From positions 1 to 43,347 of the IMG/VR virus record IMGVR_UViG_3300027545_000002: DNA of 43,347 nt; one strand, 5' to 3'. Shown in pieces: positions 3 through 25,523 of the stretch. The position numbers were made by a program, and so were the translations under genes. The notes beneath the pieces were generated by a model that saw only the letters and a list, made by a program, of their open reading frames with translations, made no database searches and was not told where the DNA came from. The number at the start of each line of letters is the position of its first letter. Position 1 is the stretch's first letter. This DNA is from a virus. Lineage: Duplodnaviria; Caudoviricetes.

Positions 3-431
3 GCTATACGCAACCAAGGGTTATCAGTCAAACAACTTTATACAGTTACCCAACTTCCAAATACCGGAACCAGATTTTTACAGTGCAGACTTCCCAGTGG
101 ACGAGTATTTAGTTATCTCAATCCAAGTGTCAGCGGTAACACAATCTCTTACGATGCTCCAAAATTTGGAAGTAGCAAAACATATGGAGGAGAGTTGGTC
201 GAAAACATTGCGCAAGCAGTCTCAAGAGACATCATGGCCGAAGCCTTGGTACGTTTGGAAGAAGCATATCCAACGGCTTTTACCGTACACGATGAGCTGG
301 TCTGCATTCCACGAATTGCAGGAGAAAAATCGTTCAAAGAATTTGAAAGAATAATGCTACAAGTACCTGTATGGGCAAAGGGATTACCGATTGATGTTGA
401 ATGTTGGCAAGGAAATAGATATGGAAAATGA
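3..431 (+). CDS. Family A DNA polymerase, C-terminal part (continues from the ORF at the right end of the window)
   Basis: Frame open from nt 3: AIRNQG...RLPSGRVFSY...TYGGELVENIAQAVSRD...TVHDELV (motif C)...WAKGLPIDVECWQGNRYGK, typical of phage PolA C-termini. The ORF track only called 195..431. Confidence 0.93.
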   Translation, partial: AIRNQGLSVKQLYTVTQLPNTGTRFLQCRLPSGRVFSYLNPSVSGNTISYDAPKFGSSKTYGGELVENIAQAVSRDIMAEALVRLEEAYPTAFTVHDELVCIPRIAGEKSFKEFERIMLQVPVWAKGLPIDVECWQGNRYGK

Positions 432-1010: not shown

Positions 1011-1462
1011 TTAAAGCTGTACTTGGTATAGACCCAGGCGGTACTGGTGGCATGGTTTTAGGGGATGAATTTTTTGGTTGGTATGTACATCCTTTTAAAA
1101 ATAATTGGGAAAAAACAGCAGAAGTTTTACGCGAATGGCAAAAAGATTTCTGGATCACTACTGCATACATAGAAGCAGTAGGGGCAATGCGTAGAGACAA
1201 ACCTAGAACTGCATTCATTTTTGGTAAGAATACAGGTATCATAACTGGAATGCTGTATCTAGCTAAAATTCCTTTCGTAGAAGTGCATTCCCAGAAGTGG
1301 CAGAAGTTTCACAAGTTAGGGGCTAAATATGAATCTAGTGCAGAACGTAAAAACGCTCATAAAGCTCATGTCCAAGAAATACTGCCCGAAATTAAATGGA
1401 CACTTCAAACTGCTGATGCCGGTCTTATTGCTTCTTATGCTTTCGACAAAGAGCTTGGCTAA
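1007..1462 (+). CDS. RuvC-like Holliday junction resolvase
   Basis: LGIDPGGTGG, AYIE, FGKNTG, KWQK and ADAGLIA motifs; GGAG RBS before GTG 1007. Confidence 0.85.
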   Translation: MIKAVLGIDPGGTGGMVLGDEFFGWYVHPFKNNWEKTAEVLREWQKDFWITTAYIEAVGAMRRDKPRTAFIFGKNTGIITGMLYLAKIPFVEVHSQKWQKFHKLGAKYESSAERKNAHKAHVQEILPEIKWTLQTADAGLIASYAFDKELG

Positions 1463-1757
1463 TATTCCTAGTGTTGTTCAAATACAGGTACAAGGGCAAA
1501 CCCATTTAATAACTGAATTAATAGAACACAAAAAATTCTTTAGACACCCAGAAAAGGAATTTTGGAAGTATAAGCTTTTAGATTCTGATTATCCGCTTGT
1601 TATTCATAAGCCGGAATACAAAGCTAACGAAACGCTTTTAAAAACAGTGACCGATAATCGTCCATTTAATGTAAAACATCCGATAATGCAAATCGCTATG
1701 TTTGTTGGTAATATATCTTCTCTGGCTTTAAATATTGTACAAGTGGTGAAACTATAA
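1455..1757 (+). CDS. Hypothetical protein
   Basis: Open frame; TTG 1455 overlaps the resolvase end and avoids the long overlap of the track start. Confidence 0.5.
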   Translation: MANIPSVVQIQVQGQTHLITELIEHKKFFRHPEKEFWKYKLLDSDYPLVIHKPEYKANETLLKTVTDNRPFNVKHPIMQIAMFVGNISSLALNIVQVVKL

Positions 1758-2115: not shown

Positions 2116-2712
2116 TTATACAGCTTCTTGTAGTAACTGCTTATATACAACAAATGCCCCTGGGCGTGTATCAATAATGTCAATCCACTTTCCGTTATCT
2201 TCACCTCTAAAACGCATATTGTGATGCAGCTCATCAAGCTCATTAGCAACATAAGGAGAGTTGAAAGGGTTACTACCATACGCCCTCCCGTTATACCCAT
2301 AGAAAGCGTCAGCAATAGTCTTATCTGAAGTATCTACAGAGATTACTTGAGTTGATTCATGTACATCTTTCTCTACGTCAAGCTGGTAACTCTGAACCAT
2401 AACTAACGGATAACGGCATTCGTGGCGTAACCAACATGCAGCTAAAATAGCAGCAAAAGAAAAATCATCAATGCTATAACGGATGGGCTTATAGTCAGTA
2501 TAGCTTTGCAAAAGTCCTAGTATAACTGCATGGGTTGGTGGCGGATCAAACTGAAATGGGTTATTGCCCATTGTCAATCCGTGTTCGCGAAACCACACAG
2601 CGGCTAGCATTTGCCAAGGAACTTTTACAAGTTGCTCCGCTTCAAGCAAGATAGATTTGTTTGCTTTGATAGTGTCTATTTCTTGTGAAGATAGTCTAGC
2701 TAGGGATTCCAA
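2116..2712 (-). CDS. Putative endolysin, lysozyme-like/lytic transglycosylase fold
   Basis: VPWQMLAAVWFREHG (catalytic-Glu-type helix end), NPFQF, AFYGYNG, NSPY; last late gene, downstream of holin-like genes. Confidence 0.7.
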   Translation of the reverse strand: MESLARLSSQEIDTIKANKSILLEAEQLVKVPWQMLAAVWFREHGLTMGNNPFQFDPPPTHAVILGLLQSYTDYKPIRYSIDDFSFAAILAACWLRHECRYPLVMVQSYQLDVEKDVHESTQVISVDTSDKTIADAFYGYNGRAYGSNPFNSPYVANELDELHHNMRFRGEDNGKWIDIIDTRPGAFVVYKQLLQEAV

Positions 2713-2842
2713 ATACTTTTACTCCAAGAATTATGAATAGTATTAAATCAAATCCGCGGGCATACTTTACGTATGGTTCTGGAAACCAACACCCAGCTAC
2801 CGCAAGAATGATAAGTACCCAAAAAATTACTGCTAGTACCAT
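2696..2842 (-). CDS. Small two-TM membrane protein, 48 aa (missed by track)
   Basis: MVLAVIFWVLIILAVAGCWFPEPYVKYARGFDLILFIILGVKVFGIPS; ATG directly after the previous stop and fills the gap exactly. Confidence 0.7.
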   Translation of the reverse strand: MVLAVIFWVLIILAVAGCWFPEPYVKYARGFDLILFIILGVKVFGIPS

Positions 2843-2843
2843 T

Positions 2844-3206
2844 TTAACCGTCCTTTTTTAATAACGCTGCTGCTGTTGCCGCTGTAGTAGTTGCAGCTAC
2901 TTCAGCTGCTGTTTTTGCTGATTCTACTTTTTCTGTTAATGTAGCTAATTTAGCTGCTTGATCTACTGCATGAGCTGTTTGCCCATTAGTAGCTATTTTT
3001 ATATCGTTTATACCTTCTCTATTTTCTTTAGTGGCTTTTGTACCTTCATCAGTTTTATACATGTTCAGAATTTGTCCAATTGTTGGTGTAAGAAATCCTA
3101 TTATAAGAATTACTGTTTGAGTCTGTGCGCCTTGAGGGCAAAAAATTTCTAAACAGGTAATAGAAATTAGCCCTACGCACGTAATAATAGTAAGCGCAAT
3201 GATCAT
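2844..3206 (-). CDS. Holin-like membrane protein (N-terminal TMs, Ala-rich helical tail)
   Basis: Two N-terminal hydrophobic segments; position in the lysis cassette. Confidence 0.55.
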   Translation of the reverse strand: MIIALTIITCVGLISITCLEIFCPQGAQTQTVILIIGFLTPTIGQILNMYKTDEGTKATKENREGINDIKIATNGQTAHAVDQAAKLATLTEKVESAKTAAEVAATTTAATAAALLKKDG

Positions 3207-3556
3207 TTTTTCCCTGCTAGTTTTACTGCTGCTTGTATTACCTTAGCACTTCCAATACCCACCCACGGTGATAGTATTATGACCCATATAAAATCTGGAA
3301 TAATTAATGTTTTTCCTATGTAAGAAAAATATATTTGCGCTGCGGTAATTAGTACGGTAATAGCACTTGATAGCTTAAGAGCATTTTCCCTTAATGAAGC
3401 ATCAGCTCTAGCATTAATGATATCAGTCACTTCACAATGATGCGCTTCTGCTAATATTTTAGCGGCTTCTATATTTGTTTGCGTTTGAGTAACCGCGGCT
3501 TCTTTTGCCGCATATATTACTTTATCCGCTATCTCTAATGATTGATTTTCGTCCAT
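3203..3556 (-). CDS. Holin-like membrane protein (two C-terminal TMs)
   Basis: Two hydrophobic segments and a basic C-terminus; lysis cassette. Confidence 0.55.
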   Translation of the reverse strand: MDENQSLEIADKVIYAAKEAAVTQTQTNIEAAKILAEAHHCEVTDIINARADASLRENALKLSSAITVLITAAQIYFSYIGKTLIIPDFIWVIILSPWVGIGSAKVIQAAVKLAGKK

Positions 3557-3627
3557 GTTGAGGCAATAAAACTCAGGCTTAATAGTCCAAGGAATACACC
3601 TCTCACTATCTCATATGCTAATGGCAT
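3535..3627 (-). CDS. Small single-TM peptide, 30 aa (missed by track)
   Basis: AAGGAG RBS 8 nt before ATG; MPLAYEIVRGVFLGLLSLSFIASTWTKINH. Confidence 0.55.
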   Translation of the reverse strand: MPLAYEIVRGVFLGLLSLSFIASTWTKINH

Positions 3628-3640
3628 TTGATAGTCTCCT

Positions 3641-4402
3641 TTAAGTGACTAGCCCTACAGACCAAATATCACTCGTCAAGTTGGGGTCTAATAGATATGC
3701 CCAAGGTAAATGGAAATAGCCTTTATCTCCCCAACTGCTCCCCCAGGAATTAGGACCTGAAACATAATTTTCATCGTAGCTTGATACTCGTAAAGCATGT
3801 CCTCCTATAGGACTGTCAAACGGTCCTGGCATAGCTATAATACCGTCTTTAGCACATTGCGCACTTTCTATTTGATCAAAAACAGCTATTCCTATAACTA
3901 AAGGAAAACCGTTAACGATAGCGCTTTGAACAGATTGCTGGTCTTGGTTGACTTGAGAATAAGTAAGACACTTATGAAGTCCTGCGTCTTGTAGAGAAGC
4001 AGCAGGCGGAGCTTGAGTGAACTTACTGATGTCATAAGGCCAATTCCAAGATGAGCCTTCGTCCTCTGGACACACGCCTGTACTGTTAATGACTTTGAAT
4101 CCATCACGGATATTAGCCCCCGCATCTTGATCGGTAGTACCTTCAATAGCACGTTCTCCATAATAAATTTGTAAACGTGATGGAGTAAAAGGCCATTTAT
4201 ATTTGTTCTTCACCATCCAAGTTTTAAGAGCACCTGATATAGCATTAGCAGTACATGAGCCCAAATCGCCTTGATCAAACACAATACTGTCCCATTGGGC
4301 AAGAGAAAATGCAGCAGGTAAAACAGTTGGAGAACCGCTAAAAGCAAACTTATGATCTCTATGATCAGGTAAACCGCGCTTATATCCATATCTATGTTTC
4401 AT
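3641..4402 (-). CDS. Papain-family (C1) cysteine peptidase, xylellain-like
   Basis: DQGDLGSCTANA (Gln/Cys), GGHAL (His), NSWGSSWGDKGYF (Asn); N-terminal YGYKRGLPDHRD; PSRLQIYY. Confidence 0.93.
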   Translation of the reverse strand: MKHRYGYKRGLPDHRDHKFAFSGSPTVLPAAFSLAQWDSIVFDQGDLGSCTANAISGALKTWMVKNKYKWPFTPSRLQIYYGERAIEGTTDQDAGANIRDGFKVINSTGVCPEDEGSSWNWPYDISKFTQAPPAASLQDAGLHKCLTYSQVNQDQQSVQSAIVNGFPLVIGIAVFDQIESAQCAKDGIIAMPGPFDSPIGGHALRVSSYDENYVSGPNSWGSSWGDKGYFHLPWAYLLDPNLTSDIWSVGLVT

Positions 4403-4839
4403 GACGTCACCTTAATTAATGGGGAAATGAAAAGGTCGTAGGGAGTAATTCTGTCGCCTTGATCTCTATCAAGCAACATAATACCGGCTTTAGCAAAAGC
4501 AGCAAATACTAATTCAGAACAAAACCAAGAATTTTTACTGCTCCAATCCTTATGTAAAATTATCCCAGCAATTTGAGCATAATCGTAAGATTTTCCTCTT
4601 TGGGAAAGAACAAATCGGTCTATTATTTTCTCTTGTTCAGGAGTAGTTTCAACAGTACCAAACCATTCTTTCTTAGGTTTTGCGTAATCTAAAGAACGAA
4701 GTTCTACCCCTCCGGGGGCTACTGCTCCTAAATACCCATTATCAAATGCAAATTCAACATGACTGATTTGACTCCATGTCCAAAACTTTATTAAGTCTGG
4801 GACTAAACCTCTATTATCTAAAAATCTTAGTTTTATCAT
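4399..4839 (-). CDS. Permuted papain-like (YiiX/YebB, NlpC/P60 superfamily) enzyme
   Basis: N-terminal SHVE, GKSYD, WFCSELV, ITPYDL; His precedes Cys. Confidence 0.85.
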   Translation of the reverse strand: MIKLRFLDNRGLVPDLIKFWTWSQISHVEFAFDNGYLGAVAPGGVELRSLDYAKPKKEWFGTVETTPEQEKIIDRFVLSQRGKSYDYAQIAGIILHKDWSSKNSWFCSELVFAAFAKAGIMLLDRDQGDRITPYDLFISPLIKVTS

Positions 4840-5171
4840 AAGCTATTAATTATAGGGCAAATTACTTCACATCCTACTGCACATACCATTTTAGCAATTG
4901 CTATCATCTGGGCTGCTGTAATGCCCAATTTATTTTCTATTGCAAATTCATTTAGCTGAAGTTCTCTTATATTAGGATCTTCAATCAGCATTATTTGTTG
5001 AAAACGAGCTGAATCTAGTTTCATTTTCTCTCCTTTATCGTAAGCTCTCTTTACTAATGCGTAAAATTTATCGGTAGATTCTTTAATACCTATTCCAGAA
5101 ACTGTTTGCGTTTCAACCATAAACCTTGCGGCATTCCATAACTGCAATTGAAATGGCGTTAAATCAGTTAT
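4836..5171 (-). CDS. Hypothetical protein downstream of the tail fibre (possible fibre chaperone); start uncertain
   Basis: Open frame; AGGAG lies 6 nt before in-frame ATA 5171, whereas the track start TTG 5147 has no RBS. Confidence 0.6.
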   Translation of the reverse strand: MTDLTPFQLQLWNAARFMVETQTVSGIGIKESTDKFYALVKRAYDKGEKMKLDSARFQQIMLIEDPNIRELQLNEFAIENKLGITAAQMIAIAKMVCAVGCEVICPIINSL

Positions 5172-6786
5172 AAATAACTCCTGTTAAAGCGTTGCATCCT
5201 GTAAGGGAAAGTGTTGGTAGGGTTCCGTAGTAAGTAGTAATTACACTAGTTTGTGCTGATTCAACTCTTTGATAATAATTAAGTCCTAAAGCGCTAGTAC
5301 CTGTATAACTACAATTGATATTTTCAATGGCTCCTGTAGCCGCTGAACTAAATCCGCCTATTACTATTGCTGTAGAAGTACTATTTATTCCAATTCCAAT
5401 ACACGATACGCCTGAAAGATTGTTATTTGCAGCTAAACAAGTATCAGTTAAATTAACAGCTCTAGCTTTTCGTGAAAATACAGTTACTCGTCCTTGTCCG
5501 TTAGTAGTATTAGCATTTGCAGCTCTTAAAGTAGGAGTAGCGTACGTCCAACTGCTAGTTGTATCCTGCGCAAAAACTGCTTTTGATAGCTCATTGAATT
5601 CATTACTTACTGAACGTTCACCAATATAATCATTAGTGTGTCCAGTAGAACTGCAATAAAATTCACCAACTAAAAGTTTATTGGTTGAACTTGGTTTTGT
5701 AAGTCTTCCTAAAGCATCAGTGCTGTAAGAAGGCGCAGTAATTGGATTAGTCCAATCTTGATCTATCTCAACTGTCTCAGTTCCTGCATTATTATAAATA
5801 TAAACACTATACGCATCTCCGTTAACTAAGCTGCTTATAGAAGTTCCTATTTCAGTAAGTTTGATAGTCGAAAGAACTCCACTACCGTTATCCTGAGTTA
5901 CTAAATTACCTTTATACGGACCAACATATACAGTTGTATTTCCTGAACTTGAACCATCAGCTTCAGGTGATCCACTTACTAAATAAATACGTATCTGTGT
6001 TTGCCCTAATATAGGAGATTTACTAACGAAGCCTGTTCCAGTATCAGTTACAACATTACCACTTGCTACTGGAACAATGCCTGTACCTAAAAGAGTTCCT
6101 ATTGTATTATTCCAGGTAGGAATTGCCCCATTTACTGTAGTAGTTCCAGGTCCAATAACTCCAGAACTTGCAGCTTGAGCCACTATTTGTTGAGGCGTAT
6201 AATTCACAATATTCATAGCGCCGCTATCCCAGCCAATCAGATTTAAAGCTACTGGAGTAGGTAATGCAGTATTGACTAATCCAACAGAAGTGATTGGTAA
6301 TTGCAAGCTTAAACTTTGAGCAGTGCTTATTTGCTGTATTTGCATACAAGCTCTATCAAAAACAGTTTGCAACGTAGAAGAAGGCAAGCTACCTTCAACA
6401 GGTAAATTTATTGTTTGAGTTAAAGTAAGCATTCTTGCCATAAGAATGGCAGCAGCATTAGCCGGGGTATAAGTGGCTTGAAATGTTATTGTGCCGCCTG
6501 TACAAGGATAAGATCCTCCTGTTGGAGAAACAATATAAGCAACACTTTGAGTTTGTAGACCGCCATTAACGTAAACAGTCATATCAGATGCTTGAAGCAG
6601 TTCAAACGTAAAGGTAAAAGTATTTGTAACACCATCCCCGGTAGCGGAGCTAGTGGAGTTGGTTGTTGGGACTACTGCTTGTGCTGATAACTGACAAGTA
6701 AGAAATGTTGAACAGATTAACAGATGAACGAATAACGTCAAAAAGACGAGTATGTTTTTAACAGATTTATTTCGTATTAGGTGCAT
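5164..6786 (-). CDS. Tail fibre protein (T7 gp17-like N-terminal domain) with N-terminal signal peptide
   Basis: TGDGVTNTFTFTF...DMTVYVNG...GGTITF...FDRACMQIQQ is the podovirus fibre attachment domain; preceded by MHLIRNKSVKN-ILVFLTLFVHLLICSTFLTC-QLSAQA. Confidence 0.88.
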   Translation of the reverse strand: MHLIRNKSVKNILVFLTLFVHLLICSTFLTCQLSAQAVVPTTNSTSSATGDGVTNTFTFTFELLQASDMTVYVNGGLQTQSVAYIVSPTGGSYPCTGGTITFQATYTPANAAAILMARMLTLTQTINLPVEGSLPSSTLQTVFDRACMQIQQISTAQSLSLQLPITSVGLVNTALPTPVALNLIGWDSGAMNIVNYTPQQIVAQAASSGVIGPGTTTVNGAIPTWNNTIGTLLGTGIVPVASGNVVTDTGTGFVSKSPILGQTQIRIYLVSGSPEADGSSSGNTTVYVGPYKGNLVTQDNGSGVLSTIKLTEIGTSISSLVNGDAYSVYIYNNAGTETVEIDQDWTNPITAPSYSTDALGRLTKPSSTNKLLVGEFYCSSTGHTNDYIGERSVSNEFNELSKAVFAQDTTSSWTYATPTLRAANANTTNGQGRVTVFSRKARAVNLTDTCLAANNNLSGVSCIGIGINSTSTAIVIGGFSSAATGAIENINCSYTGTSALGLNYYQRVESAQTSVITTYYGTLPTLSLTGCNALTGVIYN

Positions 6787-7003
6787 TAGCTACCGGAGTG
6801 TATTCTTTGCCTTTATAGATAATATTACCATTAGCTACTAAGATTACTTTAGCCTCTTTTTGCTTTTTCCTTCCTGTAACAAACATAGGAGGGCTAACTG
6901 GTTGGTTAAGCGCCCAATTAAAAGCTACCGCATTGTCAAGTTCATCTGCTTTAACAGGTAAACATAAAGCGCATATACACATAATTAAAAATAGTTTTTT
7001 CAT
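6767..7003 (-). CDS. Small secreted protein (signal peptide)
   Basis: GGAGG RBS before MKKLFLIMCICALCLPVKA|DELD. Confidence 0.7.
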   Translation of the reverse strand: MKKLFLIMCICALCLPVKADELDNAVAFNWALNQPVSPPMFVTGRKKQKEAKVILVANGNIIYKGKEYTPVANAPNTK

Positions 7004-7027
7004 ATAAGTGACCTCCATAATATACAT

Positions 7028-10000
7028 CTAGTATAGTAGATTTGGGTCGCGTGTGCCTTTAGATTTACTGTTCTTTTCTATTATTCTTTTTGTTCCGTGT
7101 ATTGCTGGTTCAAAAGGATCTTTTACAAAAAATGCTGCTAGGGCATTTGCGTCTTCTAAACATTTTATTAAGTTATTCTTTATATAGCTAGGGTCTTTCT
7201 TCTGATGCTGGGCATCTAATGCCAATCTATAAAGCGCTTTATCTGCTTGCCCTAGTAGCCCTTCACTAGGTTCAGTTACCGGTACTCCTACTGAAAACTT
7301 AACTACATCTTCTATAGCTGTTTTCACAATTGGGATATTTAGTACCTGAAACAAGGATTCAATAGGTTCAATTATAAATCTCTCCATCGCCGCAGCACGT
7401 TGCTTATCGTCTTTAGCCATAGCATAACTAATAATTGCTTTAGCACTACCAAAAGCTAGTCCAGTATAAGCGGCTCTATAGATAGATCGCCTCAAATTTA
7501 ATGCCGCTTCTGAAGTCCTATGCTTAGCCCAATAGGTATAATCCACAGCTACTTGTGTTGATAGCTTTAGTTGTTGTCCGTGGAAAGTAGCAAAGAGTCT
7601 ACCTATTAAACCTCTATTCATAGCAGAGCGCATATCCACTGCTCCAGAAACCTGCGTCTTATGAACGAGTTCGCCAGCTTTTTCTAAAGCCTTAGCCTCG
7701 CTCATTCCTTGTTCCCTGTAATATTCTTTGGCTACAAACAGCCCAAACGCTTCTGCTTTTATACCTTGCAGTGTTGGAGACATCCAAAAAAATTGCCACA
7801 CGGTAGCTGCTGGGCTATCCATGTTATCTGTGTATCTGGTATTAGTAGCAGTATCAATAGCATGGGCGTCATGACGATGCTTTAGTTGTTTGGTATTAAG
7901 CATGTCATTAAAATTCTTTATTGGATCTTCAAAGAATTTAGCCGTACCCCTAGCTCTAGCATCTGCGGGTATATCAATTAGCATATTAAGACTCGCTAGT
8001 ACGTGAGCGGGGAATAGATGTATTTTTCCGCTAACCAGTGAAAAAGGTAAGTTTCTAAAAACAACGGTGTCAAGAAACTTTTCTAGCTGGTTAGCTGTAT
8101 TAACTTCTCCGTATAAAATATCTTTAGTTTTCTGCTTCCACGCATCAACAAAAAATGTTCCCTTCTGATTTATGAGTTGAGTAGTTAAACTCCTACTTCC
8201 CTGCACAGGAGCTATTTTATTTTTTATAATATCTTTAAATGCTAACCAATGCTCTGCTTGTCTTGAATATTGCTTAAATGCTGTATCAGCATCAGGAATA
8301 ATAACTCTTGATGTACTGCCAGTTCTGGATTTTAAAGTCCCGGGCGAACTATTATTAATAGCCCTCCCTCTAGGTATAGTGTCCTGAAAATGCTCTTGAG
8401 TTAAATTTTCAGCGCTGTCATGTACAAGTTGCCCAGAAAACATTTCTGTTTTATTTAGCGGATAACCTTTATCCTTCTCTACCTCTTTAGATAGCTTGCC
8501 GTATAGTTTGTAATACCCTTTTCTATAAGCATCCATCATATCTAAATAACGCGGATCTATTTTAGCTAGTTGTTCTTCTATCTGAGCCTGCAATTGATAT
8601 GTACGCATCACATCTAACTCAGGGTCGCCATATCCATTACCTTTAATAAGAGCATTAGCTGCTTTTTCGTCATCAAGCATCATATGTAGTTGCACTGCTT
8701 GGTTAGCTGAAAGTACATCTACCCCAGAACCGTTTTTATCTGTGTATTCTATATAAATTCTATTAGCGTCAGTTTGTGGAAATAGCTTAACTAGCTTTAT
8801 TGCTTTGCGATATAGTTTCAATACAAAACCGTCTTTCCTGCCCTTGCGTAGTAGCTCTTTTATAGCCCCAACGTCCGAGTTACTTGTTTCCGCTATTTCC
8901 CCGTATAAAGTATTTACGTTATTAGAATGTTCTCTTTCTGATTCTTGCTGTGCAGGGTGTACGTTTAGTTCCTCCAGTAACGCATCTCGTTCTTTAATAT
9001 TAGCTTCTTCATTTAAAGCTACCTCATTCATTTGATGATAGTTACCAGTTAAATTAACTCCCGCCTCAGAGAAATGGGGTATATGTAATTTATCAGTATC
9101 AGCGTTAGTCCTATCACTACCCCCGACAGCTTTTTTAACTCTATCAACTAAATCTTTTCTCGCTTTCTGTTCCTCTAATACTTTAGCTATTTTGCCTTTA
9201 CGACCAGTATTATATGCTTCTTCAATTTCTATTTTTAATTTACGTAGCCCTTTGGCATTCCTTTTATCAATGTTAGCTATGAAGTTTGCAGCATCGTAAT
9301 TAGCTTGTTCTTCTTGCGAATTAGGGTGCCCCTGCTGTTCGTTATATTCATAATCCCCAATAACTTTATCTGCTTCGCTTTGATTATGGAAATATTGTCG
9401 CACCTTATCTAAAAATTTCTGTACTTCTATTTTGTCTAAACGTGTTTCTGGTTGTCCTGCTGTTACTTTAGGTTCAGTATTTTTAATAGTATTTTCTAAA
9501 CGTTCTTTTTCAATCTCTCTACTTTCAGTTTCATGCGCTGCTTCTTTAGCTTGCGCTTTTTTTAAATCTTTTTGTATTTTATCTAAGTCTTGCCGTAGTC
9601 CTGTTAGCTCACCTTCGTATTGTATTCGTTCACCTGGAGGTAAAGTTCTACTAGCAAAAACAGCCCCCCGCAATGCTTTTGTAGCTTTATTCTTTTTATC
9701 TATTAAAGCTTTTACTTCGCCATGTAATTGCGTAGACGTTTCATCACGTTCTATTTCCCCTTTAGTGCGGGTATCTTCTTTAGGTATTTCAACTTTTAAT
9801 TCTGGCTCTTCTTGCGGAAATAGCCAATTCAAAGCCTCTGTTCTAGCATCGTCCTTAACTTGCTGCGGCGTTCTTTCGCTTTCTGCTGGCATATCCTCTA
9901 CAGCTTTTTGTTCCTGATTTTGTAGATGAGCTTCTAGATTTGCTCCTGGTAATTCAAGTGTATTAGCAAAAGCTTTCATACCCTGCGGTAAAGTCTTAGG

Positions 10001-13396: not shown

Positions 13397-13837
13397 CTAA
13401 TCCTCCTTAGTTATTGCGTACATCAAATAATCCTGCTTATCCTTAGTATAGAGCTTCATTCGTCCTTCATAAACAAATCCAAGCTTCTCTATAAATTTCA
13501 CTCTCGTTGGATCATCTAAAACACTACTTTGCAATCTATGTATATTAGGGTGGGCTTTCAAGAGGGATATTGTTCTATAACATATTCTAAAGGAAACTTG
13601 CGGGTATTCAAAAATATATTTACTGGGTATGACGAACATCTCAACTACGCCAGGCCATAGCGTCAAATAGCCAGCTACCCCTAAGAGCTTGCCATCATGA
13701 AACGTACTACGACAATCATTCCCTGGAACAAACACGTTAGCTAGGAATTTCCTAAAATCCAGCATTTCTATTTCATGCGGTTGCAGTTGCAACTGGTCTA
13801 AATGCCAAGCTTCAAATGGAACGATGCTAGTAACCAT
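13397..13837 (-). CDS. GNAT-fold protein (T7 gp13-like)
   Basis: LLGVAGY..LWPGV and KFIEKLGFVYEG motifs; follows the nozzle gene. Confidence 0.8.
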   Translation of the reverse strand: MVTSIVPFEAWHLDQLQLQPHEIEMLDFRKFLANVFVPGNDCRSTFHDGKLLGVAGYLTLWPGVVEMFVIPSKYIFEYPQVSFRICYRTISLLKAHPNIHRLQSSVLDDPTRVKFIEKLGFVYEGRMKLYTKDKQDYLMYAITKED

Positions 13838-16473
13838 TAGGTAGTATTGAACTGATCATCTGAAGTTTGTACGTACCCATCAATTCCACAAACTGTAGCC
13901 GATAAAGGTAGTCTTTGGATTACCACAATTTTCTTTTGTGGGTCTTGATCTTGCTCCGTCCATGAGTCAGCATACTGCACCATATCAATACCTGTAAAGG
14001 GTACAGTCGGTCTATCAGTTTGAAAAGGTGCTTGTCTAAAAGTTAATTGCTGTTGTGTGTAATAATCAGTACCAAAAGTAAGCCCAACAGAATTTAAAAA
14101 CCTCAAAGCTGCTTTTACTAAAATACGAGATTTACTCTGTGCCGTTCCGCTTTTTCCGCCCACATCTAAGTTTAAAGTTTCCAAAGTTCCTATATAAGGA
14201 AAACCTACAACTACTGTGCTGGCTGGGGCTTGGAGTGTTATTGCTCCATTTGCAACAGTAGCATTCACAGCAGGGCCGCCGTCCGTCACGACCGATACAC
14301 TATTGCCATTACCAAAGTAACCAAGACCGTTTATTGTCGTAGCCGTTAAATACCAACTACCAGCAGCCATAGCCGCTGTAGTAGAAAACGGAACATAAAC
14401 TTTAGCTGTCATATGTGTACTGTCAGTAAAAGCTGTTATTACAGCTATGCCATTACCTTGATCATTACCGTCATAGGAATTAGTAATTAACTGCCCTACC
14501 ATCGAAGCCGTAAAGATTGGAGCTGAAGCAGTCAGTGTTATTGATGCTCCAATAGGGCCAACAGCAGAAGGAGTTACTGAAACATTTGCGTTTCTTCCAA
14601 GAGCTGAGCCATCATAATAAACAGCCATATCTAAATAAATAGATGACTTCTGCTTTTCATACATTGCATTATTAAATAACATTAGATCAGCAGCTTTACC
14701 TGCTGGGGTGCTAACGCTTCCGTAAAAATCCCGAAAATTAGGAAATTGCTGATAATCAGCCATATATTCAACCGAACATATAGTTTGCCCGTTTATAGTT
14801 CTAGTTACAGCAAACCAAAGCTGATCTGTTGTGTTATTACGTGGAGAGACTGCTAAGGAATTAACAACAGCGTTGTTTACTAATATCCCATTAGAATTAG
14901 TAGACTGACCCCCTAAGTAGTTTCTAAACCATCCAGCATAAGGTTCTATTTCTGGACGTGAGTAAATGAAGCCCAGGAACCTACCATCAGTTCTTAAATA
15001 CCACATAGTATCTGGATAACCACGCTGTTGAACAACCTGAGTTAAACCAACTTGTGATAAATGATCAGCCGCTATGATTTGGTCTTTAGTAGTAAGCCCT
15101 TGAATATAAAAATCATATTCCAAAGAGCGAACACGCTGACCGCCTCTTTGAATAAAGAATAACGTATCACCATTAGCTAACGGTAATGTATAAGCACAGC
15201 CTATTGTATTTGCTGGTTGAGCTGTAATAGCACTAGGAGTAACAGGAGTGCCTTGAGTAGTTCCCCATAGACTCCTTACTGAAGCAAATGTACCAATGAC
15301 CATGAATCCATTAGTGTTTGAAATCCATTCTACGTAATCTACTTTGCCGCTAAACAATGGAGCAAGAGTAAATATAACTGAGTTAGTTGCAGCAGTTCCA
15401 AGAGTAAAATCGTCAAACGCTGTAGTACCGCTAGAAGGGGCAGAACTGCCCCAAAGAGATTGAGGGTTATTAAGAGTACCTCCATACCATAAACGCCCAG
15501 CAGAATCGAACTGAACACTACGTGGATAATTTCCTAAACTAGTAAAAGGATCTGTTCCTGTCCGCGTAAACGTTGCCATTGACCAATTAGCGCTCGAATT
15601 TCTAATAAGCTTATACGGAGCATATTGCTGATTGACAATATACATAACATCAGCACTCTGAGCATATTGAAGATTAGCTATATCAGCAGCTACATAAGGT
15701 GTCGTTACTTCATAAATACGTTGAGCAACTGCACCACTTGTATAAGCAGCTAACGCCGTCGTATTGATAGCATTAGCAAATAAATCAGTAAGGCTAAAAT
15801 TATTAGCATCGATTTTGACCACAAGGTATTGCTGTCCATCTAATAACATTGCTCCTGTGCCAACTAAGAAAACAGCATCCCCAGTAGAATATTGATGATG
15901 AGTAGCAGTGATCACCCCAGGATTAGCATTAGTAATTGCGCTAATGCCGACTACCTGAGTTGCTTTGCCGCCATTGGTGTAAGTGCCATAAGCAGTACTG
16001 TCTACCCCTAAAGTAAAAGTATTAGCGTCAACCACAGTAATAGTATAAGTATTGCCATTTAACTGCGTCATACCTGCTACGTTATTAATAATAACCTTAT
16101 CGCCAGTTGCATAACCATGCGCAGTATCAGTGACAGAAGCAGGATTAGCATTGGTAACGCCAGTAATAACAGTATCGTTACCAGTCACAATTCCATTGTT
16201 AGTGTAGAACCGCATCTTCAATGGAGTGACTTCAACAATATAAGTTTGCTGATCACTAAAGTTAAAAGGTACTAAAGCTGCTGTTTGATTCAATCTAGTA
16301 TTAGTAACGAAAACCGTTCCGTTTCTATACTGCGCTGGTCCTTGTGGAGTAGCTAGAAAGTTTTCCATCTTAGCTAAAGACTTTTTATAAATAGGCGCAT
16401 CAATACGTCCGTGCATGAGTGGTGATATTTCACCACCAGAAAAGTTAGATATTAATTCATTTGCTATAGGCAT
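13837..16473 (-). CDS. Tail nozzle / tail tubular protein B (T7 gp12-like) with two FCCH-like inserted repeats
   Basis: NFSGGEISP...R.D, ENF...PQG...R.GT, YAQSADVMY, FFIQRGG motifs; ITGVTNANP...HGYATGD repeat present twice. Confidence 0.9.
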   Translation of the reverse strand: MPIANELISNFSGGEISPLMHGRIDAPIYKKSLAKMENFLATPQGPAQYRNGTVFVTNTRLNQTAALVPFNFSDQQTYIVEVTPLKMRFYTNNGIVTGNDTVITGVTNANPASVTDTAHGYATGDKVIINNVAGMTQLNGNTYTITVVDANTFTLGVDSTAYGTYTNGGKATQVVGISAITNANPGVITATHHQYSTGDAVFLVGTGAMLLDGQQYLVVKIDANNFSLTDLFANAINTTALAAYTSGAVAQRIYEVTTPYVAADIANLQYAQSADVMYIVNQQYAPYKLIRNSSANWSMATFTRTGTDPFTSLGNYPRSVQFDSAGRLWYGGTLNNPQSLWGSSAPSSGTTAFDDFTLGTAATNSVIFTLAPLFSGKVDYVEWISNTNGFMVIGTFASVRSLWGTTQGTPVTPSAITAQPANTIGCAYTLPLANGDTLFFIQRGGQRVRSLEYDFYIQGLTTKDQIIAADHLSQVGLTQVVQQRGYPDTMWYLRTDGRFLGFIYSRPEIEPYAGWFRNYLGGQSTNSNGILVNNAVVNSLAVSPRNNTTDQLWFAVTRTINGQTICSVEYMADYQQFPNFRDFYGSVSTPAGKAADLMLFNNAMYEKQKSSIYLDMAVYYDGSALGRNANVSVTPSAVGPIGASITLTASAPIFTASMVGQLITNSYDGNDQGNGIAVITAFTDSTHMTAKVYVPFSTTAAMAAGSWYLTATTINGLGYFGNGNSVSVVTDGGPAVNATVANGAITLQAPASTVVVGFPYIGTLETLNLDVGGKSGTAQSKSRILVKAALRFLNSVGLTFGTDYYTQQQLTFRQAPFQTDRPTVPFTGIDMVQYADSWTEQDQDPQKKIVVIQRLPLSATVCGIDGYVQTSDDQFNTT

Positions 16474-17273
16474 CAGTCTATAATCGTAAATCTAGAAGCT
16501 TCCGCATTAGCCCGTAATGCTCTGCGCCTTTCTAACGCGGGGCTTCGTTCAATCCGTAGCGGCGGATTCTCTTGACCGCTAACCGCTGTTAACGCTGGAG
16601 TTAATTCATCTATTTGTTTTTGTATAGACATAACTAACGAATTACTTTTAGTTATTTGATAAGCAATTTTTCTAGCTATCTTTAGCTCAAGAAGCTCAAG
16701 TACGTCTTGTGTCCAATTAGTCAGATTAGTTTCGTTAAATATATAACGTAGATTTATTGAGGTGTTTACCGCAGTACCAGCAAGGTCACTGGGATTAGTA
16801 ACTACTTGTCCAGTAATAATAGTAGTTATAGTTTCAACTGACTCACTACCTGTAATTATTGGCCCAATATCCGTGGTTGTTTGCACAACATCAGCTAAAT
16901 TACTTTGAATACCAAAAAGACTAGAATTATTTACCCAAATTTGTCGTTGAGACATTATTCTATAACGGTGCTTTTGCCACTCGACAATCTCCCCACCTAA
17001 AGAAACAAAGCGAACAAAATCAGCCGGTAGTTGATAAGCATCGCTAAAATCTCTGATAGGCGTCCCAATGCGGCTAATCATTGTTTCTTGTGTAGCAAAT
17101 GGCCACGGATTCATACGCAATACATTTACACGCTGCTGATCATAAAATTGCGCTAGCACCGCTTCCATAGCATTGCCAGGAGTTGGCGGGTTTATAGAAG
17201 CAATAGTTATGTTTTGCCCACACGCAGTAAGCGCGTTTTGACAAACTTGAACATCAGCGCTAGGTGCTGCCAT
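16473..17273 (-). CDS. Tail adaptor / tail tubular protein A (T7 gp11-like)
   Basis: VCQNAL...G, YDQQR...L...PWPFA, YQLPADF motifs; GGAGGT RBS. Confidence 0.85.
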   Translation of the reverse strand: MAAPSADVQVCQNALTACGQNITIASINPPTPGNAMEAVLAQFYDQQRVNVLRMNPWPFATQETMISRIGTPIRDFSDAYQLPADFVRFVSLGGEIVEWQKHRYRIMSQRQIWVNNSSLFGIQSNLADVVQTTTDIGPIITGSESVETITTIITGQVVTNPSDLAGTAVNTSINLRYIFNETNLTNWTQDVLELLELKIARKIAYQITKSNSLVMSIQKQIDELTPALTAVSGQENPPLRIERSPALERRRALRANAEASRFTIID

Positions 17274-17907: not shown

Positions 17908-18795
17908 TTAAACAGTAGTGTTGAATTGTTGAATCAACTTGCCTTCTGTCCGTACTGCACCCAGAACCCCAATAACTTGAATTTGTTCTACTTCAGCATA
18001 ATCAGGTCTGTCTTTTACTTTGACATCCCAATCGCGTGACATACCTACGCACAAACCATCAGTAGCTAAAGCGAAAGATTGTCTTACCCCAGCAACTACC
18101 CCAAGTACTGGGTTAGTAACATTGGCACCGAACTTGAGCAACTCCATATTAGCTACTTGCGTAACTTCACCTTTTTCAAGTTGCATTTGATTTGTATATC
18201 TAGAAGATATAAACTGGTCAATTTGCAAGAGGGTGGAATGTTCTTCACCGGATATACCGACGCAGATTTTTATAGGCATATCGTTACCAACTTCACCATC
18301 GATGAAGTTTTGCTTGATAGCTAGAATCTTGGCAAGTGTCAAACCGCCAGTAGCATCAACAGTTAACACGCCATCATTGGCGGCAGTAACTGAAGTCTGG
18401 AAAGTCTGACCAGTGTTAACCGCAGCAAACATCGCTTGGTAACAAACTAAGTCGAATACCCGCTCAAGAGCCTTAACACATGCTTCAGCAAGACGACCCT
18501 TAGGATCGTTCATCATGCCTTCGACATCCATTTGGTCAAGAGGAATAGTGACTACGAATCTACGTCTGATAATTTCGCGACGATTAAATTCAATATCATC
18601 AAATTGAGTTAAATTAATACGCCCAACTAACTCACGGGCTTCTACGGTGCCTAAACCATCGTATGCGTAAGTGTCGCCAGTCATGCGGCGAATGTCACAG
18701 TAAGGACGCAATCTTGCGCGGGCTTGTTGTGCCCGGATGTGCATCATGTCCGAAAACTGGACTATAAGTGCATTATTGACGGTGTTCATTGCCAC
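17908..18795 (-). CDS. Major capsid protein
   Basis: VQFSDMMH..AQQ..ARLR, GGLTLAKI, GAVRTEGK; follows scaffold; GAGGT RBS, GTG start. Confidence 0.9.
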   Translation of the reverse strand: MAMNTVNNALIVQFSDMMHIRAQQARARLRPYCDIRRMTGDTYAYDGLGTVEARELVGRINLTQFDDIEFNRREIIRRRFVVTIPLDQMDVEGMMNDPKGRLAEACVKALERVFDLVCYQAMFAAVNTGQTFQTSVTAANDGVLTVDATGGLTLAKILAIKQNFIDGEVGNDMPIKICVGISGEEHSTLLQIDQFISSRYTNQMQLEKGEVTQVANMELLKFGANVTNPVLGVVAGVRQSFALATDGLCVGMSRDWDVKVKDRPDYAEVEQIQVIGVLGAVRTEGKLIQQFNTTV

Positions 18796-20014: not shown

Positions 20015-20294
20015 GGTTAATATCCTTTACTATTTCTGCTGGAACTTCCTTTTTCTCGTCTAGTTCTATTACAGAGAGATTATCTACTTCTATAATATCA
20101 CGTAAATCAAGCCATACACCTCGTCTAGCTTCATTATAGATAGTACCGCGTATTTCTACTTCATTTGATTTAGTTAGCACTACTGAAGGTTTCTGATAAC
20201 CGCATTCTCTCATAAGGGCTTTGAGAAATACTTGACCCTCGTGTTGAGAGCTGATTATCTTTAATGCTTGCTTTTCTCTATCTGATAGATCCAT
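19830..20294 (-). CDS. Bbp19-like protein between portal and scaffold
   Basis: EGQVFLKALMRECGY...IYNEARRGVWL pattern; TAATG coupling to the portal gene. Confidence 0.7.
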   Translation of the reverse strand: MDLSDREKQALKIISSQHEGQVFLKALMRECGYQKPSVVLTKSNEVEIRGTIYNEARRGVWLDLRDIIEVDNLSVIELDEKKEVPAEIVKDINHERSNSSNTDPNDDINIKSVGGTVRRRRDDFDRKSAKFAEDYIAGIYPGIGNDEGTDRGGA

Positions 20295-22198
20295 TAAGCA
20301 GCTTGATTGCCCCCTACACTAGTTCCAAACAAATCCTGTAGTGGTAAACCTGCTTTTGCCGCCGATTGCGCGGCCTGGGCTACATGCTTCATATCTACAG
20401 AACTTTGAGCCTTCTGCGCTGCTGCTGCTTGTTGCTGCTGTACCTGTATCCTGTTTTGTCGCAATGCCTTTATAGTTTCAGCGTCGTTAAGAATAGCGCT
20501 GTTCGCGCCAGCCAACTCAACTATAAGCTCCACTGCTTTATCGGTATTGATAGTATCCAATATATCAGGAACCGCTTGAGACATGTTTATAGTTGCTGTC
20601 AGTGCCTGTTGTATCCCCGCAAGTTCTTCTGCTCTCATACTACGGGCTGCTGGGGAAACAAATCTAATTTTATAACCGTTCTGCCCTGAATTGATTAGCT
20701 TAGCTACAGCATCAGGGATATACATTGCTGGTGGTTTACCAAGAGCTTGTAAAATCAAATCGTCAATAGAACCTTTGATAATCCCAAGACGCTTTTGGTC
20801 AAACAGGATATCAAAAGTAGCTTCTACTGTACGTGAGAACTGTTCAGCTATTTGACGGGCATACACAGTTATAAGTGAACGCTGACGCATACCGTCTATT
20901 ATCTTAGCTTCCCCTAAAGTCTTTCTTTGCGTATTATCTAAAGTAGTTAACTTATCAATAAAGAAATTCTTTTGGATAATAGCTTGTAGCCTTTCTATCT
21001 CAAGATAAGTATCTTTAAGCTCACCAACTGTTATAAGCGGTTCGACTGGTTTAAGACCGCTATTAGCAATACGACCAGACACATTATGAACACTAATTGC
21101 GCCAGTAGAGGTGTTAATTGTTTGGTTGCCCAATGCACCGTCAGACAGCACCAATATAGGAGGATTGAGTGTTTTCTCAACTGCGACAATGGAATTCTCC
21201 CTCATCTCATTAACTTCTAAAATATCAGGCATTGCTTCCATGCCAGGACTTCTGCCATAGACTTCGTTCATGGTTTTCCAAAAACGAGTAATGAAGATAC
21301 GCATTTTCTTCATGCCTGATTCTTTAATTATATGCCCTTCTGGTACTTCAATATGATCAGAAGCAATGGGATAACCTTTTACCCCAAAAGCCCCCGGATT
21401 ATCTTGCCTTGGTTCTACCGCGTGGAGTATTTGTATAAGTTCTTCTTGCCTTGAACCATCAGGACTATTAAAGCTATCTCGTACTCGTTGAGAAACATTA
21501 TCAATACCGTACTCCTGTACTACCTGGCGCATTGTCATTTCACGCAAAACATAGCAAGTATCAACAACGCCTTGAGAATTTTCAGCAATAGCTATTTTCT
21601 TAGCATCCACTGCCATATAAGAAAGTGGAGTCTCTGCCCCAAGTTCTTCATTCTCTTTGACGTAAATACCACTTATACCAAACGCCCCTTGGTCATAAAA
21701 ATATTCTTCAAGGGCACAAGCTAAGCCGCATTTAGGGTCGTCCATAACTTCCGCCATCGTATGAGACACCCATTCAAAATACTCTTTTACCTCTTTTGAA
21801 TTTTTTACCTCGGCTGGCATACTGTCAGGTGGGTGAATATAGAACGACCTGGAAGCATTAGGCCACAAATCCCCAAGCATAGAACTAGCCATATCATGGT
21901 TAGCCATAGGAGCAGTAGAGTCAAATATCTTACCTGTAAGGAACATCCCTGGAGTTATATGAAGCGTAAAGTCTTGCTTACGAGTCATAATAAACTCACC
22001 AAGTAATTGGTATGTATAAAGCCAAGGAGCCTTCTTAGCAAGCAGTTGTCTATGCTTAGCCATGATAGCTTGTGCGCGTTGTTGTTTAGTTGGCTTAGCT
22101 GGAAGTGCTGAAGGGGTATTTAACGGCATTGCAAAAGGATCGAATACAGGATCGACACTTCCATTATTAGAACTAGCTACGGCATCTATCGTAGACAT
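20294..22198 (-). CDS. Portal (head-tail connector) protein
   Basis: IFDSTA, EVYGRSPGMEAMPD, NPP and SPAARS motifs of T7 gp8/BPP-1-type portals. Confidence 0.93.
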   Translation of the reverse strand: MSTIDAVASSNNGSVDPVFDPFAMPLNTPSALPAKPTKQQRAQAIMAKHRQLLAKKAPWLYTYQLLGEFIMTRKQDFTLHITPGMFLTGKIFDSTAPMANHDMASSMLGDLWPNASRSFYIHPPDSMPAEVKNSKEVKEYFEWVSHTMAEVMDDPKCGLACALEEYFYDQGAFGISGIYVKENEELGAETPLSYMAVDAKKIAIAENSQGVVDTCYVLREMTMRQVVQEYGIDNVSQRVRDSFNSPDGSRQEELIQILHAVEPRQDNPGAFGVKGYPIASDHIEVPEGHIIKESGMKKMRIFITRFWKTMNEVYGRSPGMEAMPDILEVNEMRENSIVAVEKTLNPPILVLSDGALGNQTINTSTGAISVHNVSGRIANSGLKPVEPLITVGELKDTYLEIERLQAIIQKNFFIDKLTTLDNTQRKTLGEAKIIDGMRQRSLITVYARQIAEQFSRTVEATFDILFDQKRLGIIKGSIDDLILQALGKPPAMYIPDAVAKLINSGQNGYKIRFVSPAARSMRAEELAGIQQALTATINMSQAVPDILDTINTDKAVELIVELAGANSAILNDAETIKALRQNRIQVQQQQAAAAQKAQSSVDMKHVAQAAQSAAKAGLPLQDLFGTSVGGNQAA

Positions 22199-23286: not shown

Positions 23287-25176
23287 TTATTGCTGAACGA
23301 TAAAGTTAAATATTAATGTCCCAGTAATGCCTGTACCCGCAGTTGTCGAAGTAAGTACTGCTGTAGTAGTTGTAGTTGTAACATTTAAACCTGTTCCAAG
23401 AACGCCTATATTACCAGCCGAAGTATTAGCGGCAGAAAAAGTTGCAATAGGGGCTGCACCAAAAGCAGTACCAAAAGTTACTGTTGCTAATATACCTGCC
23501 CCAGCGACAGTTCCAGTTGTAATAGTTACTTGAAAAGCTCCATCATGTCCTGTAATCGAAGCCGTTGCCCCTGAACCAGCACCTGCTCCTACAGCTACCG
23601 TTGGTGCTGTGCCTATATTTATATAATGGTTGTTATTTAAAAACCCATTAACATCAATCGATGATAAAGTAGCCGCACTAGAGTTTTGCCAAACTTGCAT
23701 AGCAGCTGTTTGAGAAGCAACTTGTTTTACTATTAATCCAATCGCGCCTACCACATTGCTGGTTACACGAAGCATAGAAGTATTACCAGCGGCAGTTCCA
23801 GTAACATCCATCATTACACCTGAACCGTTTAGCGTAATTTGATTAGATGTACCGTTAACACGCATGGTAAACGGACTACCAGTACCAACAATATTATTAA
23901 TACTAGTAGTATTGTTAAATGCACTTATCCCACTGGTATTAACGCCTCCGGCAAAAGTGACTCCACTCCCCGTATCTTGTAATGTCATTTGCGCAGTATA
24001 ACCACCACCATTAACTTGACTGGCAAATATCAAATTAGTACCGACTACACCACCTTGCTGAATCGGTTGGTTATATACAATCCAATCAGCAGTTTGGCTG
24101 GCTGCTGTCGCGTTACTTTTCCAACCTTGTCCGATTAAGTGCAATGAGGGAGAATATTGTTGAGCGCCAGAAGCAGCAGCAGTAGTGTTTTCTAATATAA
24201 GACCATCTGTTGGTGTTGTGCCAATATTGGCTTTCAATACAATCGGAGCTGCTGTCCATGTATTTTGAGTAGCAAGATTTAAATCTAAAGTGGTGTTAGA
24301 TGAAGTTCCACCAACAGTTAAAGTGCTGTTTGGAGAAGTAATAGTATCTCCACCCCCACCGCCTGAACCATTAGCAGCAGCCGTAATTCTTCCTTTAGCA
24401 TCAACTGTTATATTAGCACTAGTAAAACTTCCAACATTGCTATTAACAGTTGCAAGAGTTAAAGCACCAGTATCAGATATAGTGGCATCTCCGCTTAATG
24501 TTACAGCTTGCACATTACTTGCAGTCTTACCCACAACTATCTGGGCATCAGTTAAAGCAGGTACCATACCTTGCAAACTAGCTGTGGCTATATTAGGAAT
24601 TGTAGTTAACTGAGTAGCAGTAAGTGCTACTGGAACAGCAGTACTGCCGCTTATATTTCCTAAAACCGTATTGTTAGCTTCTGTCGGAAATTGAGCTAAA
24701 GTTGCGGAACCTGAAATGTCAGTAAATGCCGGTTGCGTCGAGCTAGGAACTCCAGAAGTGGAAATAGTATTTATCCATTGATGAGAGGTAGCTGCTAAGC
24801 TTTCTATACCTCCTAAAGTAGATGCGCCAGGATTACCTAGAGTTACAACACCTGTAGTGGTATTAATAGTTGCTCCACCACTAGCAGTAAACCCTCCTAA
24901 AGCACCAGAACTATTAAATTGAATTTGTCCGTTAGTACCGCCAGCAGAAGCTGAACCGCCAGACGAACTTATAGTTAACGTATTAGGACTGCTTCCTGGC
25001 GTAAGAGTTACATTTGTTCCAGCTTTCAGTTGATAGCTATTAGGAAAAGTTGCAGAATCGTTTCCCTGAGTTAACACATCAGCCGGACCACCACCTCCAC
25101 CAGCAGAAATATATTGAGCAAAACTAGGAGTTATAGTAAGAAAAAAGGCTAAAAGTAAAACAAGTATATTTTTCAT
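23287..25176 (-). CDS. Fibre-like virion protein with signal peptide
   Basis: TGATG-coupled start MKNILVLLLAFFLTITPSFA|Q; G/T/S/A-rich with fibre-type segments (GGTNGQIQFN, SGDATISDTG, ANITVDAKGRITAAANG). Confidence 0.75.
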   Translation of the reverse strand: MKNILVLLLAFFLTITPSFAQYISAGGGGGPADVLTQGNDSATFPNSYQLKAGTNVTLTPGSSPNTLTISSSGGSASAGGTNGQIQFNSSGALGGFTASGGATINTTTGVVTLGNPGASTLGGIESLAATSHQWINTISTSGVPSSTQPAFTDISGSATLAQFPTEANNTVLGNISGSTAVPVALTATQLTTIPNIATASLQGMVPALTDAQIVVGKTASNVQAVTLSGDATISDTGALTLATVNSNVGSFTSANITVDAKGRITAAANGSGGGGGDTITSPNSTLTVGGTSSNTTLDLNLATQNTWTAAPIVLKANIGTTPTDGLILENTTAAASGAQQYSPSLHLIGQGWKSNATAASQTADWIVYNQPIQQGGVVGTNLIFASQVNGGGYTAQMTLQDTGSGVTFAGGVNTSGISAFNNTTSINNIVGTGSPFTMRVNGTSNQITLNGSGVMMDVTGTAAGNTSMLRVTSNVVGAIGLIVKQVASQTAAMQVWQNSSAATLSSIDVNGFLNNNHYINIGTAPTVAVGAGAGSGATASITGHDGAFQVTITTGTVAGAGILATVTFGTAFGAAPIATFSAANTSAGNIGVLGTGLNVTTTTTTAVLTSTTAGTGITGTLIFNFIVQQ

Positions 25177-25523
25177 CAGTATGCTAACCAAGATAATGTG
25201 CCAGTAGCACTAGCCCCAATATAATGAAATCCTGTCTGAGCTGCCATATGTCCTGCTAACCCCAAATTTAAACTAGCCCCAGGGTCTACCTGAAAATCAG
25301 CACTAGTGGCAGTTGTATTATTAGGTGAAACATAAACAATAGCTGCGGTGCTAGATGTTTTTATAATTATATGAGAAAAACTCCCGTTAAAAGAAATAGC
25401 AGTATCTGTTGCCGCTATATTCACTGTACCTTCCTGGCATATAGGAGCTATTGCATAAGCGCTTATGCAATATATATTAGCTATAAACGCTAAAACTAAT
25501 CGTGCCCAAAATCTTTTAAACAT
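25176..25523 (-). CDS. Small beta-rich protein with signal peptide
   Basis: GGGAG RBS; MFKRFWARLVLAFIANIYCISAYA|I. Confidence 0.7.
   Translation of the reverse strand: MFKRFWARLVLAFIANIYCISAYAIAPICQEGTVNIAATDTAISFNGSFSHIIIKTSSTAAIVYVSPNNTTATSADFQVDPGASLNLGLAGHMAAQTGFHYIGASATGTLSWLAY

Follow-up and report, generated by a model that had tools for sequence, protein, structure and literature searches.

The tail fibre gene of the podophage genome analysed here was found to begin with a 37-residue predicted Sec/signal peptidase I leader, which is fused to a tail-attachment (anchor) domain at the place where homologous fibres carry their initiator Met. From this arrangement we infer, with a probability of roughly 0.6, an assembly route in which each step beyond the sequence anatomy is conditional. 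Translation would start at the ATG at position 6786, the leader would direct Sec export of the fibre across the cytoplasmic membrane, and signal peptidase I would cut after Ala37, generating the N-terminus that leaderless homologues obtain through Met removal. The fibre trimer would then fold outside the cytoplasm and, in its mature form, attach to particles still lacking fibres when holins open the membrane at lysis.

The stretch of DNA under study (referred to here as the window) spans 43,347 bases and corresponds to an entire virus record. A DNA polymerase gene, which we take to be of the family A type, is split at the junction 43346/1 across the two record ends (41970-43346 and 3-431, plus strand), and comparison with its L001 orthologue showed that residues 474-540 are missing, corresponding to ~67 codons or ~200 bases absent from the record. 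The window is therefore considered to represent a near-complete, circularly permuted podophage genome. Its minus-strand podophage module encompasses genes for the terminase, portal, capsid, adaptor and nozzle; it also includes three genes resembling those of internal proteins, together with an 86-aa gene and the 540-aa fibre gene. The sole sequencing run holding the fibre region was a soil metagenome. Logan contigs of run X1 matched positions 6200-6635 and 6678-7200 with zero differences, while positions 6636-6677, where leader and anchor meet, were spanned by no contig, and no join between the two matches was reported.

The fibre gene (5164..6786, minus strand; 540 aa) follows the genes for the internal virion proteins, a position usual for fibre genes. 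Residues ~38-165 of its product (6292..6675, minus strand) form the anchor domain, predicted to consist of a β-sandwich and a helix of the T7 gp17/Carin-1 type. Comparison with PHROG tail families 1640 and 13893 gave a match starting at residue 39, equivalent to profile position 3, and alignment with Carin-1 Dpo31/Dpo36 (PDB 8CK1/28LX; E 1.3e-7) paired fibre residue 39 with residue 3. As the full-length fibre model exhibited low confidence overall, and for residues 26-263 especially, the anchor was refolded separately; residues 38-190, modelled from a 116-row alignment, reached a pLDDT of 92.5. Foldseek searches with this model returned podophage tail or fibre structures in all of the top 13 rows, including 8ck1 (TMq 0.72, rmsd 2.0) and T7 gp17 (7boz; TMq 0.61), with T7-type structures in the range 0.60-0.63. 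An earlier interpretation based on the letters of the DNA (the sequence-only reading) had described a T7-type fibre with a gp17-like attachment domain, which holds for the predicted fold but not for membership of the Pfam family Phage_T7_tail (PF03906), as the score of 13.9 bits (E 0.045) lies below the cut-off of 25.2 and the whole protein was without a Pfam match at E 0.01. By sequence, the relatives of this domain are the epsilon15/phiV10/Carin-1/HTVC010P/VP2-type anchors, which have the T7 fold in common.

Anchors of the T7/Carin-1 fold dock as trimers on the adaptor and nozzle (PMC10575957), and the D1 domain of Dpo31 is linked to the virion base (PMC13317679). Among the ten closest relatives of the fibre, the anchor region is 82-87% identical, while the distal modules have been swapped. 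The C-terminal part (~residues 395-540, with approximate limits; 5167..5604, minus strand) was predicted from the full-length model and Foldseek to adopt a C1q/TNF-like jelly-roll head, with pLDDT values mostly between 67 and 85 and matches to the Pgp3 C-domain, C1q, EDA and the receptor-binding protein of lactococcal phage 1358; on this model it is likely to represent the receptor-binding end.

The leader (6676..6786, minus strand) comprises a basic n-region (residues 1-10), a hydrophobic stretch (residues ~11-30) and a c-region ending in A-Q-A. R5, K7 and K10 are its only D/E/K/R residues, none occurs among residues 11-50 of the protein, and the best 19-residue Kyte-Doolittle mean is 2.37, compared with 1.38 elsewhere in the fibre protein. 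The leader ends in S-A-Q-A and is followed by V-V-P-T-T, encoded from codons GTA GTC onwards, and it is here that the anchor begins. The basic n-region, the hydrophobic core, the position of the SAQA/VVPTT boundary at the start of the attachment domain and the lack of ATG or GTG at that boundary had all been proposed in the sequence-only reading, and each was corroborated. As judged by hydropathy and by a crude three-part rule (not SignalP), the leader exhibits the Sec/signal peptidase I features of a basic n-region, an uncharged hydrophobic h-region and a polar c-region. Tat and lipoprotein (SPII) identities were rejected, as the leader contains no twin arginine, a lipobox scan was silent on the fibre and the +1 residue is Val.

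The crude rule was positive for 14 of the 16 leader-bearing proteins and for none of the 148 others in a set of 164 homologues (the best of 7,598 anchor hits); the two negative leader-bearing proteins had been called from a later TTG-type start and lack the n-region. Across the six frames of the window, 12 of 337 Met-started 50-mers were positive. However, 555 of 2000 shuffles of the fibre leader also passed, indicating that the rule mainly measures composition and is weak on its own. The case for a signal peptide rests on conservation and on the position of the cleavage site rather than on this rule.

Between the upstream stop codon and the anchor, the only in-frame start codons are the ATG at 6786 and one TTG within the hydrophobic stretch, and at the anchor edge ATG, GTG and TTG are absent from all six loci compared. 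L005 and L006 have the ATG of the leader as their sole in-frame ATG/GTG/TTG ahead of the anchor. Met69 was considered as a conserved internal start and rejected, its codon being TTA (Leu) in L006 and L007. In all five loci for which DNA was available, the leader frame is open while both other frames contain stops.

It is very improbable that the leader merely reflects an untranslated open stretch upstream of the true start, or a mis-assembly. Such an artefact would fit the lack of a clear Shine-Dalgarno motif before the fibre ATG, which overlaps the end of the upstream gene, and the later start chosen by gene callers in five clade records (P0001, P0004 and P0012-14). The motif is, however, also missing from many other genes of this genome, leader and anchor form one uninterrupted stretch in L001/L003, L005, L006 and L007, the leader features survive 75% divergence, and the geometry of the ATG overlap matches that at the start of a leaderless orthologous gene (in G001, described below).

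Within the 164 homologues, a set drawn from the top of the 7,598 anchor hits and hence biased towards close relatives, 143 begin no more than five residues from the edge of the anchor, a further 5 have an internal codon as their called start, and the remaining 16, among them the record of the window itself, carry a leader of 22-39 residues. Among the 12 full leaders of the clade to which the fibre belongs (66 pairs, aligned ungapped from the cleavage site), median identity was 25% in the leader and 86% in the anchor, and all 12 retain the three signal regions despite this divergence. The predicted cleavage column was tabulated for 19 leader-bearing sequences, with the boundary fixed by HMM; duplicates, fragments and truncated calls (P0001, P0004, P0039, P0165, P0168, L001, L003, L004, L006 and L020) were left out, and these ten exhibited an identical cleavage pattern. 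The residue occupying the initiator-Met column was A in 17, S in one and G in one of the 19 sequences, and position -3 was A/S/T/V/C in 19/19, compared with 53/228 for the other leader positions fitting the pattern; these rows are related and stand for about six events. Thr follows the Met in 124 of 153 leaderless members, and Met aminopeptidase would expose a Thr in that position. Given the small residue in the Met column of leader-bearing sequences, cleavage would restore the N-terminus typical of the family. In P0125, a Met lies two residues ahead of the cleavage site, which may render this sequence ambiguous.

The positions of the small residues also bear on whether the leader stays uncleaved and acts as a membrane anchor, so that fibres, and with them tail assembly, would be tied to the cytoplasmic membrane up to the time of lysis. 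The 19-residue stretch with a mean hydropathy of 2.37 is long enough for a membrane span, and uncleaved export signals have a precedent in SAR endolysins (PMC6116005). Nevertheless, the small residues at -1 and -3 are conserved in every row and lie exactly at the domain edge, and distant leaders such as that of L027 are classic signals of 24 residues. Under the positive-inside rule a basic n-region stays inside and the rest of the protein outside, which would place a tethered fibre away from the capsids. A permanent tether is consequently regarded as improbable, and the suggestion in the sequence-only reading of a fibre that is 'membrane-tethered' is the weaker of its two options, export being preferred, because the A-x-A-type site has been kept. 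The length of the leader and a hydrophobic stretch that could span the membrane do count against the export reading.

To place the leaders on a phylogeny, an anchor tree was calculated from 183 anchors over 167 columns (FastTree, midpoint root) and complemented with an AU test. The window clade, composed of 17 leader rows and 3 internal-start calls, was recovered with a support of 0.996 and is nested among leaderless proteins. The leaders require 6 parsimony changes and are scattered over about six places of this tree, and monophyly of all leaders was rejected (AU p 0.004), although, as the tree alignment is short, the direction of gain or loss at single nodes is not secure. Homologues initiating at the domain boundary had been named in the sequence-only reading as an outcome that would speak against a leader; such homologues are indeed the majority, yet they do not refute the claim, as the window clade is nested among them, retains its leader and has its predicted cleavage site in their Met column. 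In the unrelated podophage loci L024 (4176-6753) and L027 (9899-19667), the anchor fibre likewise carries a leader, and neighbouring fibre, spike or small genes were, as judged by eye, also signal-bearing.

At the nucleotide level, synonymous identity at the leader/anchor junction was 79/107, compared with 31-64% in most other 12-codon bins. A special nucleotide conservation of the junction was dropped as an explanation, since codons 106-118 are equally conserved (74/95). The junction value, a stem-loop predicted just downstream of it in 4/5 loci and the long leader would all be compatible with two fibre products, of which a fraction escaping export (through a slow signal or a non-canonical start near the edge) would arm particles in the cytoplasm while the exported fraction would have a second role. 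This is judged to be quite unlikely, given that codons 106-118 match the junction, that no edge start exists in the loci compared and that Met69 is not kept; in addition, the docking domain of an unexported precursor would carry 37 additional hydrophobic residues.

A closely matched comparison was provided by the complete phage G001, whose capsid protein is 77% identical to that of the window. Its fibre orthologue (P0024) is leaderless and 40% identical over 527 columns. The G001 fibre ATG follows an in-frame stop, and its overlap with the upstream gene, six codons, equals that in the window and in L006. On this basis, the simplest reading is that of one start site behind which a leader was inserted or lost. 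Folding of the leaderless orthologue presumably takes place in the cytoplasm, which suggests that this compartment suffices for the fold and that export is not required by it. G001 carries predicted signals on its 121-aa, 210-aa and 88-aa counterparts of other signal-bearing genes of the window, and none on its anchor fibre. The fibres of G002 and G003 (capsid identity 55-58%) are likewise leaderless, and no credible signal-bearing structural gene was detected within the stretches read of these two genomes. An order in which accessory appendages were exported first and the docking fibre afterwards fits these observations, which cover three genomes only. A nozzle search of viral contigs gave no match. 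In L034, a short duplicate of the 5' part of the capsid gene was observed at 569-796, upstream of the scaffold region.

Other signal-bearing genes were sought among the minus-strand ORFs between 2 and 30 kb of the window, where the crude rule was positive for 6 of 40, namely the fibre, the 86-aa gene, a 629/634-aa fibre-like gene, a 115-aa gene, a 78-aa gene and a doubtful 67-aa frame. The rule was negative for the major capsid protein (17908..18795; PF19821), the portal (20294..22198; PF12236), the tail nozzle (13837..16473; phrog_376), the tail adaptor (16473..17273; phrog_394), which is the expected docking partner of the fibre, and the internal proteins; these head and tail-hub genes, all on the minus strand, are thus leaderless. 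The 86-aa protein (6767..7027, minus strand), whose stop lies 6 codons beyond the fibre ATG, has its own predicted signal peptide when read from its second Met, and a small signal-bearing gene occupies the same pre-fibre slot in L001, L005, L006, L007 and G001. Its product could be a fibre chaperone. The overlap of this small gene with the fibre start is in the -1 frame, and in L007 the gene continues 41 codons past the fibre ATG, covering the whole leader.

The second fibre-like protein (23287..25191, minus strand) is rich in Gly/Thr/Ser, lacks Cys and an anchor domain, and carries a predicted signal peptide, with its likely start at 25176. Leaders are present in some relatives of this protein and absent from others (52 of 120 being rule-positive), and in close relatives (P0171, P0183, P0194 and P0196) the N-terminus consists either of a signal or, at the corresponding position, directly of M-S-D-I-Y-I. 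The 115-aa β-rich protein (25176..25523, minus strand) also has a predicted signal peptide as well as a signal-bearing homologue in G001, and its nearest Atlas clusters are viral and unnamed; it is a candidate appendage adaptor or decoration protein. The 78-aa ORF (30024-30260, minus strand), located at the head of the late operon, combines a short predicted signal with a coiled-coil-like tail. Outside the structural module, an ORF overlapping a presumed RuvC-like gene (1329-1757, plus strand; 5552-5956, minus strand, in L001) starts with a signal-like leader in both phages.

With respect to function, the fibre could alternatively be an exported non-virion decoy or superinfection-exclusion protein that masks an envelope receptor, the particle being armed by other means. 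A decoy would be in keeping with the separation of fibre and capsids that export would bring about, with the leaderless orthologue of G001 and with the other small signal-bearing proteins that the phage encodes. A profile search of the six frames of the window, a genome short of ~67 codons, nevertheless recovered the fibre anchor and no second one, and the other fibre-like gene is itself leader-bearing and without an anchor. The anchor is, moreover, the most conserved part of the fibre, and restoration of the exact family N-terminus in about six lineages would be needless for a decoy, which is therefore considered unlikely.

If the fibre is instead exported and docks at lysis, as we prefer, the likelier reason for its export would be that other appendage proteins of this phage group were exported and the fibre came to follow them, as it may have to fold or assemble with them. 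Folding that depends on disulfides was dropped as a reason. The mature fibre contains seven Cys, an odd number, and the sequence-only reading had regarded these as compatible with oxidative folding; the count was confirmed but lends that reading little weight, as no pairing signal was detected (Cys counts are even in 6/12 clade members) and the only conserved Cys residues, C95 and C378, are both present in the leaderless P0024. Cys density was 0.90 per 100 aa in the clade and 0.54 in the comparison set, these being related sequences. N-glycosylation was dropped likewise, N-x-S/T sequons not being enriched (ratio 1.17 versus 1.14).

Late docking has a precedent in phage T4, whose long fibres join fibreless particles as a late step (PMC3004832). 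The compartment in which the Sec-exported fibre would reside depends on the host envelope. No fibre relatives were found in GTDB genome contigs in a host search, and a crude lipobox scan of the window returned no credible spanin or lipobox protein that would indicate a diderm host, so that a periplasmic location is assumed for the fibre rather than demonstrated. In a host without an outer membrane, exported fibre could escape into the medium. The window also encodes a GroES-like co-chaperonin with an acidic tail (40659-41000, plus strand; PF00166), for which bacterial matches are just 40-57% identical and spread over unrelated phyla.

The fibre shares its N-terminal anchor with Carin-1 Dpo31/Dpo36 and with the epsilon15/phiV10/HTVC010P/VP2-type fibres. 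Unlike Dpo31, which has a Met at the anchor edge, it carries the 37-aa leader at this position, and unlike the Carin-1 depolymerase it has a predicted C1q/TNF-like head. Fold, gene slot and the portal/adaptor/nozzle/internal-protein architecture are shared with T7 gp17 (PF03906; 7BOZ, 7EY9) and with P-SCSP1u gp28; in contrast to this family, the window fibre scores below the PF03906 cut-off and has its start ahead of the anchor edge. T7 gp17 itself is a signal-free protein synthesised in the cytoplasm. On the predicted fold and the gene slot, the fibre is expected to work as a T7/Carin-1-type fibre does.

The Sec-exported endolysins (Lys44 of fOg44 and the SAR endolysins of P1 and phage 21) are late proteins kept outside until lysis (PMC6116005). 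In contrast to these lysis enzymes, which form no part of the particle, it is the fibre of the window that has a leader, whereas the lysin candidate (2116-2712) has none. Membrane entry through signal sequences also occurs in the coat proteins of Ff phages and in the membrane virion proteins of PRD1-type phages, whose particles either leave the cell by extrusion through a membrane or have a membrane inside them. The window, by contrast, encodes a portal/adaptor/nozzle tailed phage with a leaderless head and tail hub. A weak Foldseek match linked the window fibre model to the Bdellovibrio fibre adhesin Bd2133 (PDB 8OND). Bdellovibrio adhesins are phage-fibre-like trimers made for export, indicating that maturation beyond the cytoplasm is possible for folds of this type, although they are bacterial surface proteins without a podophage tail anchor.

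Among cultured or deposited phages, 78 records matched the anchor at E<=1e-3, and among the 40 matches listed, two extend over the leader. A leader in HTVC035P was rejected, as the extension represents run-on into the upstream gene, and the other extended match likewise overlaps two annotated genes. No reports of signal-bearing tail fibres or virion parts were encountered in the titles and abstract openings of the literature, and the term 'signal peptide' does not occur in the available portion of PMC13730344.

According to the textbook view, the morphogenesis of tailed phages takes place entirely in the cytoplasm, and Sec is involved only for some lysis and exclusion proteins. We lean slightly towards the broader proposal of a second assembly route for tailed phages, in which particles would be finished without their host-recognition gear, while Sec-exported fibres would mature beyond the membrane and arm the particle at lysis. 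Phages would have entered this route repeatedly through a signal peptide at the place of the initiator Met, with accessory appendages first and the docking fibre later. The present locus adds a matched leaderless sister, a Met-column rule that applies across lineages and a case without cysteine pairing. If the proposal is true, the last assembly step would be tied to lysis timing and to the host envelope, gene callers would mis-start such genes, and recombinant fibres of this kind would need periplasmic expression. The window fibre and its leaderless G001 orthologue constitute a near-matched natural pair, which makes the role of the leader directly testable.

A lysis-like region was observed at 2116-4839 (minus strand). 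It contains two small hydrophobic ORFs resembling holins, along with genes for a papain-family peptidase (PF00112), a phrog_1128 protein and a 198-aa protein that resembles SLT/lysozyme folds.
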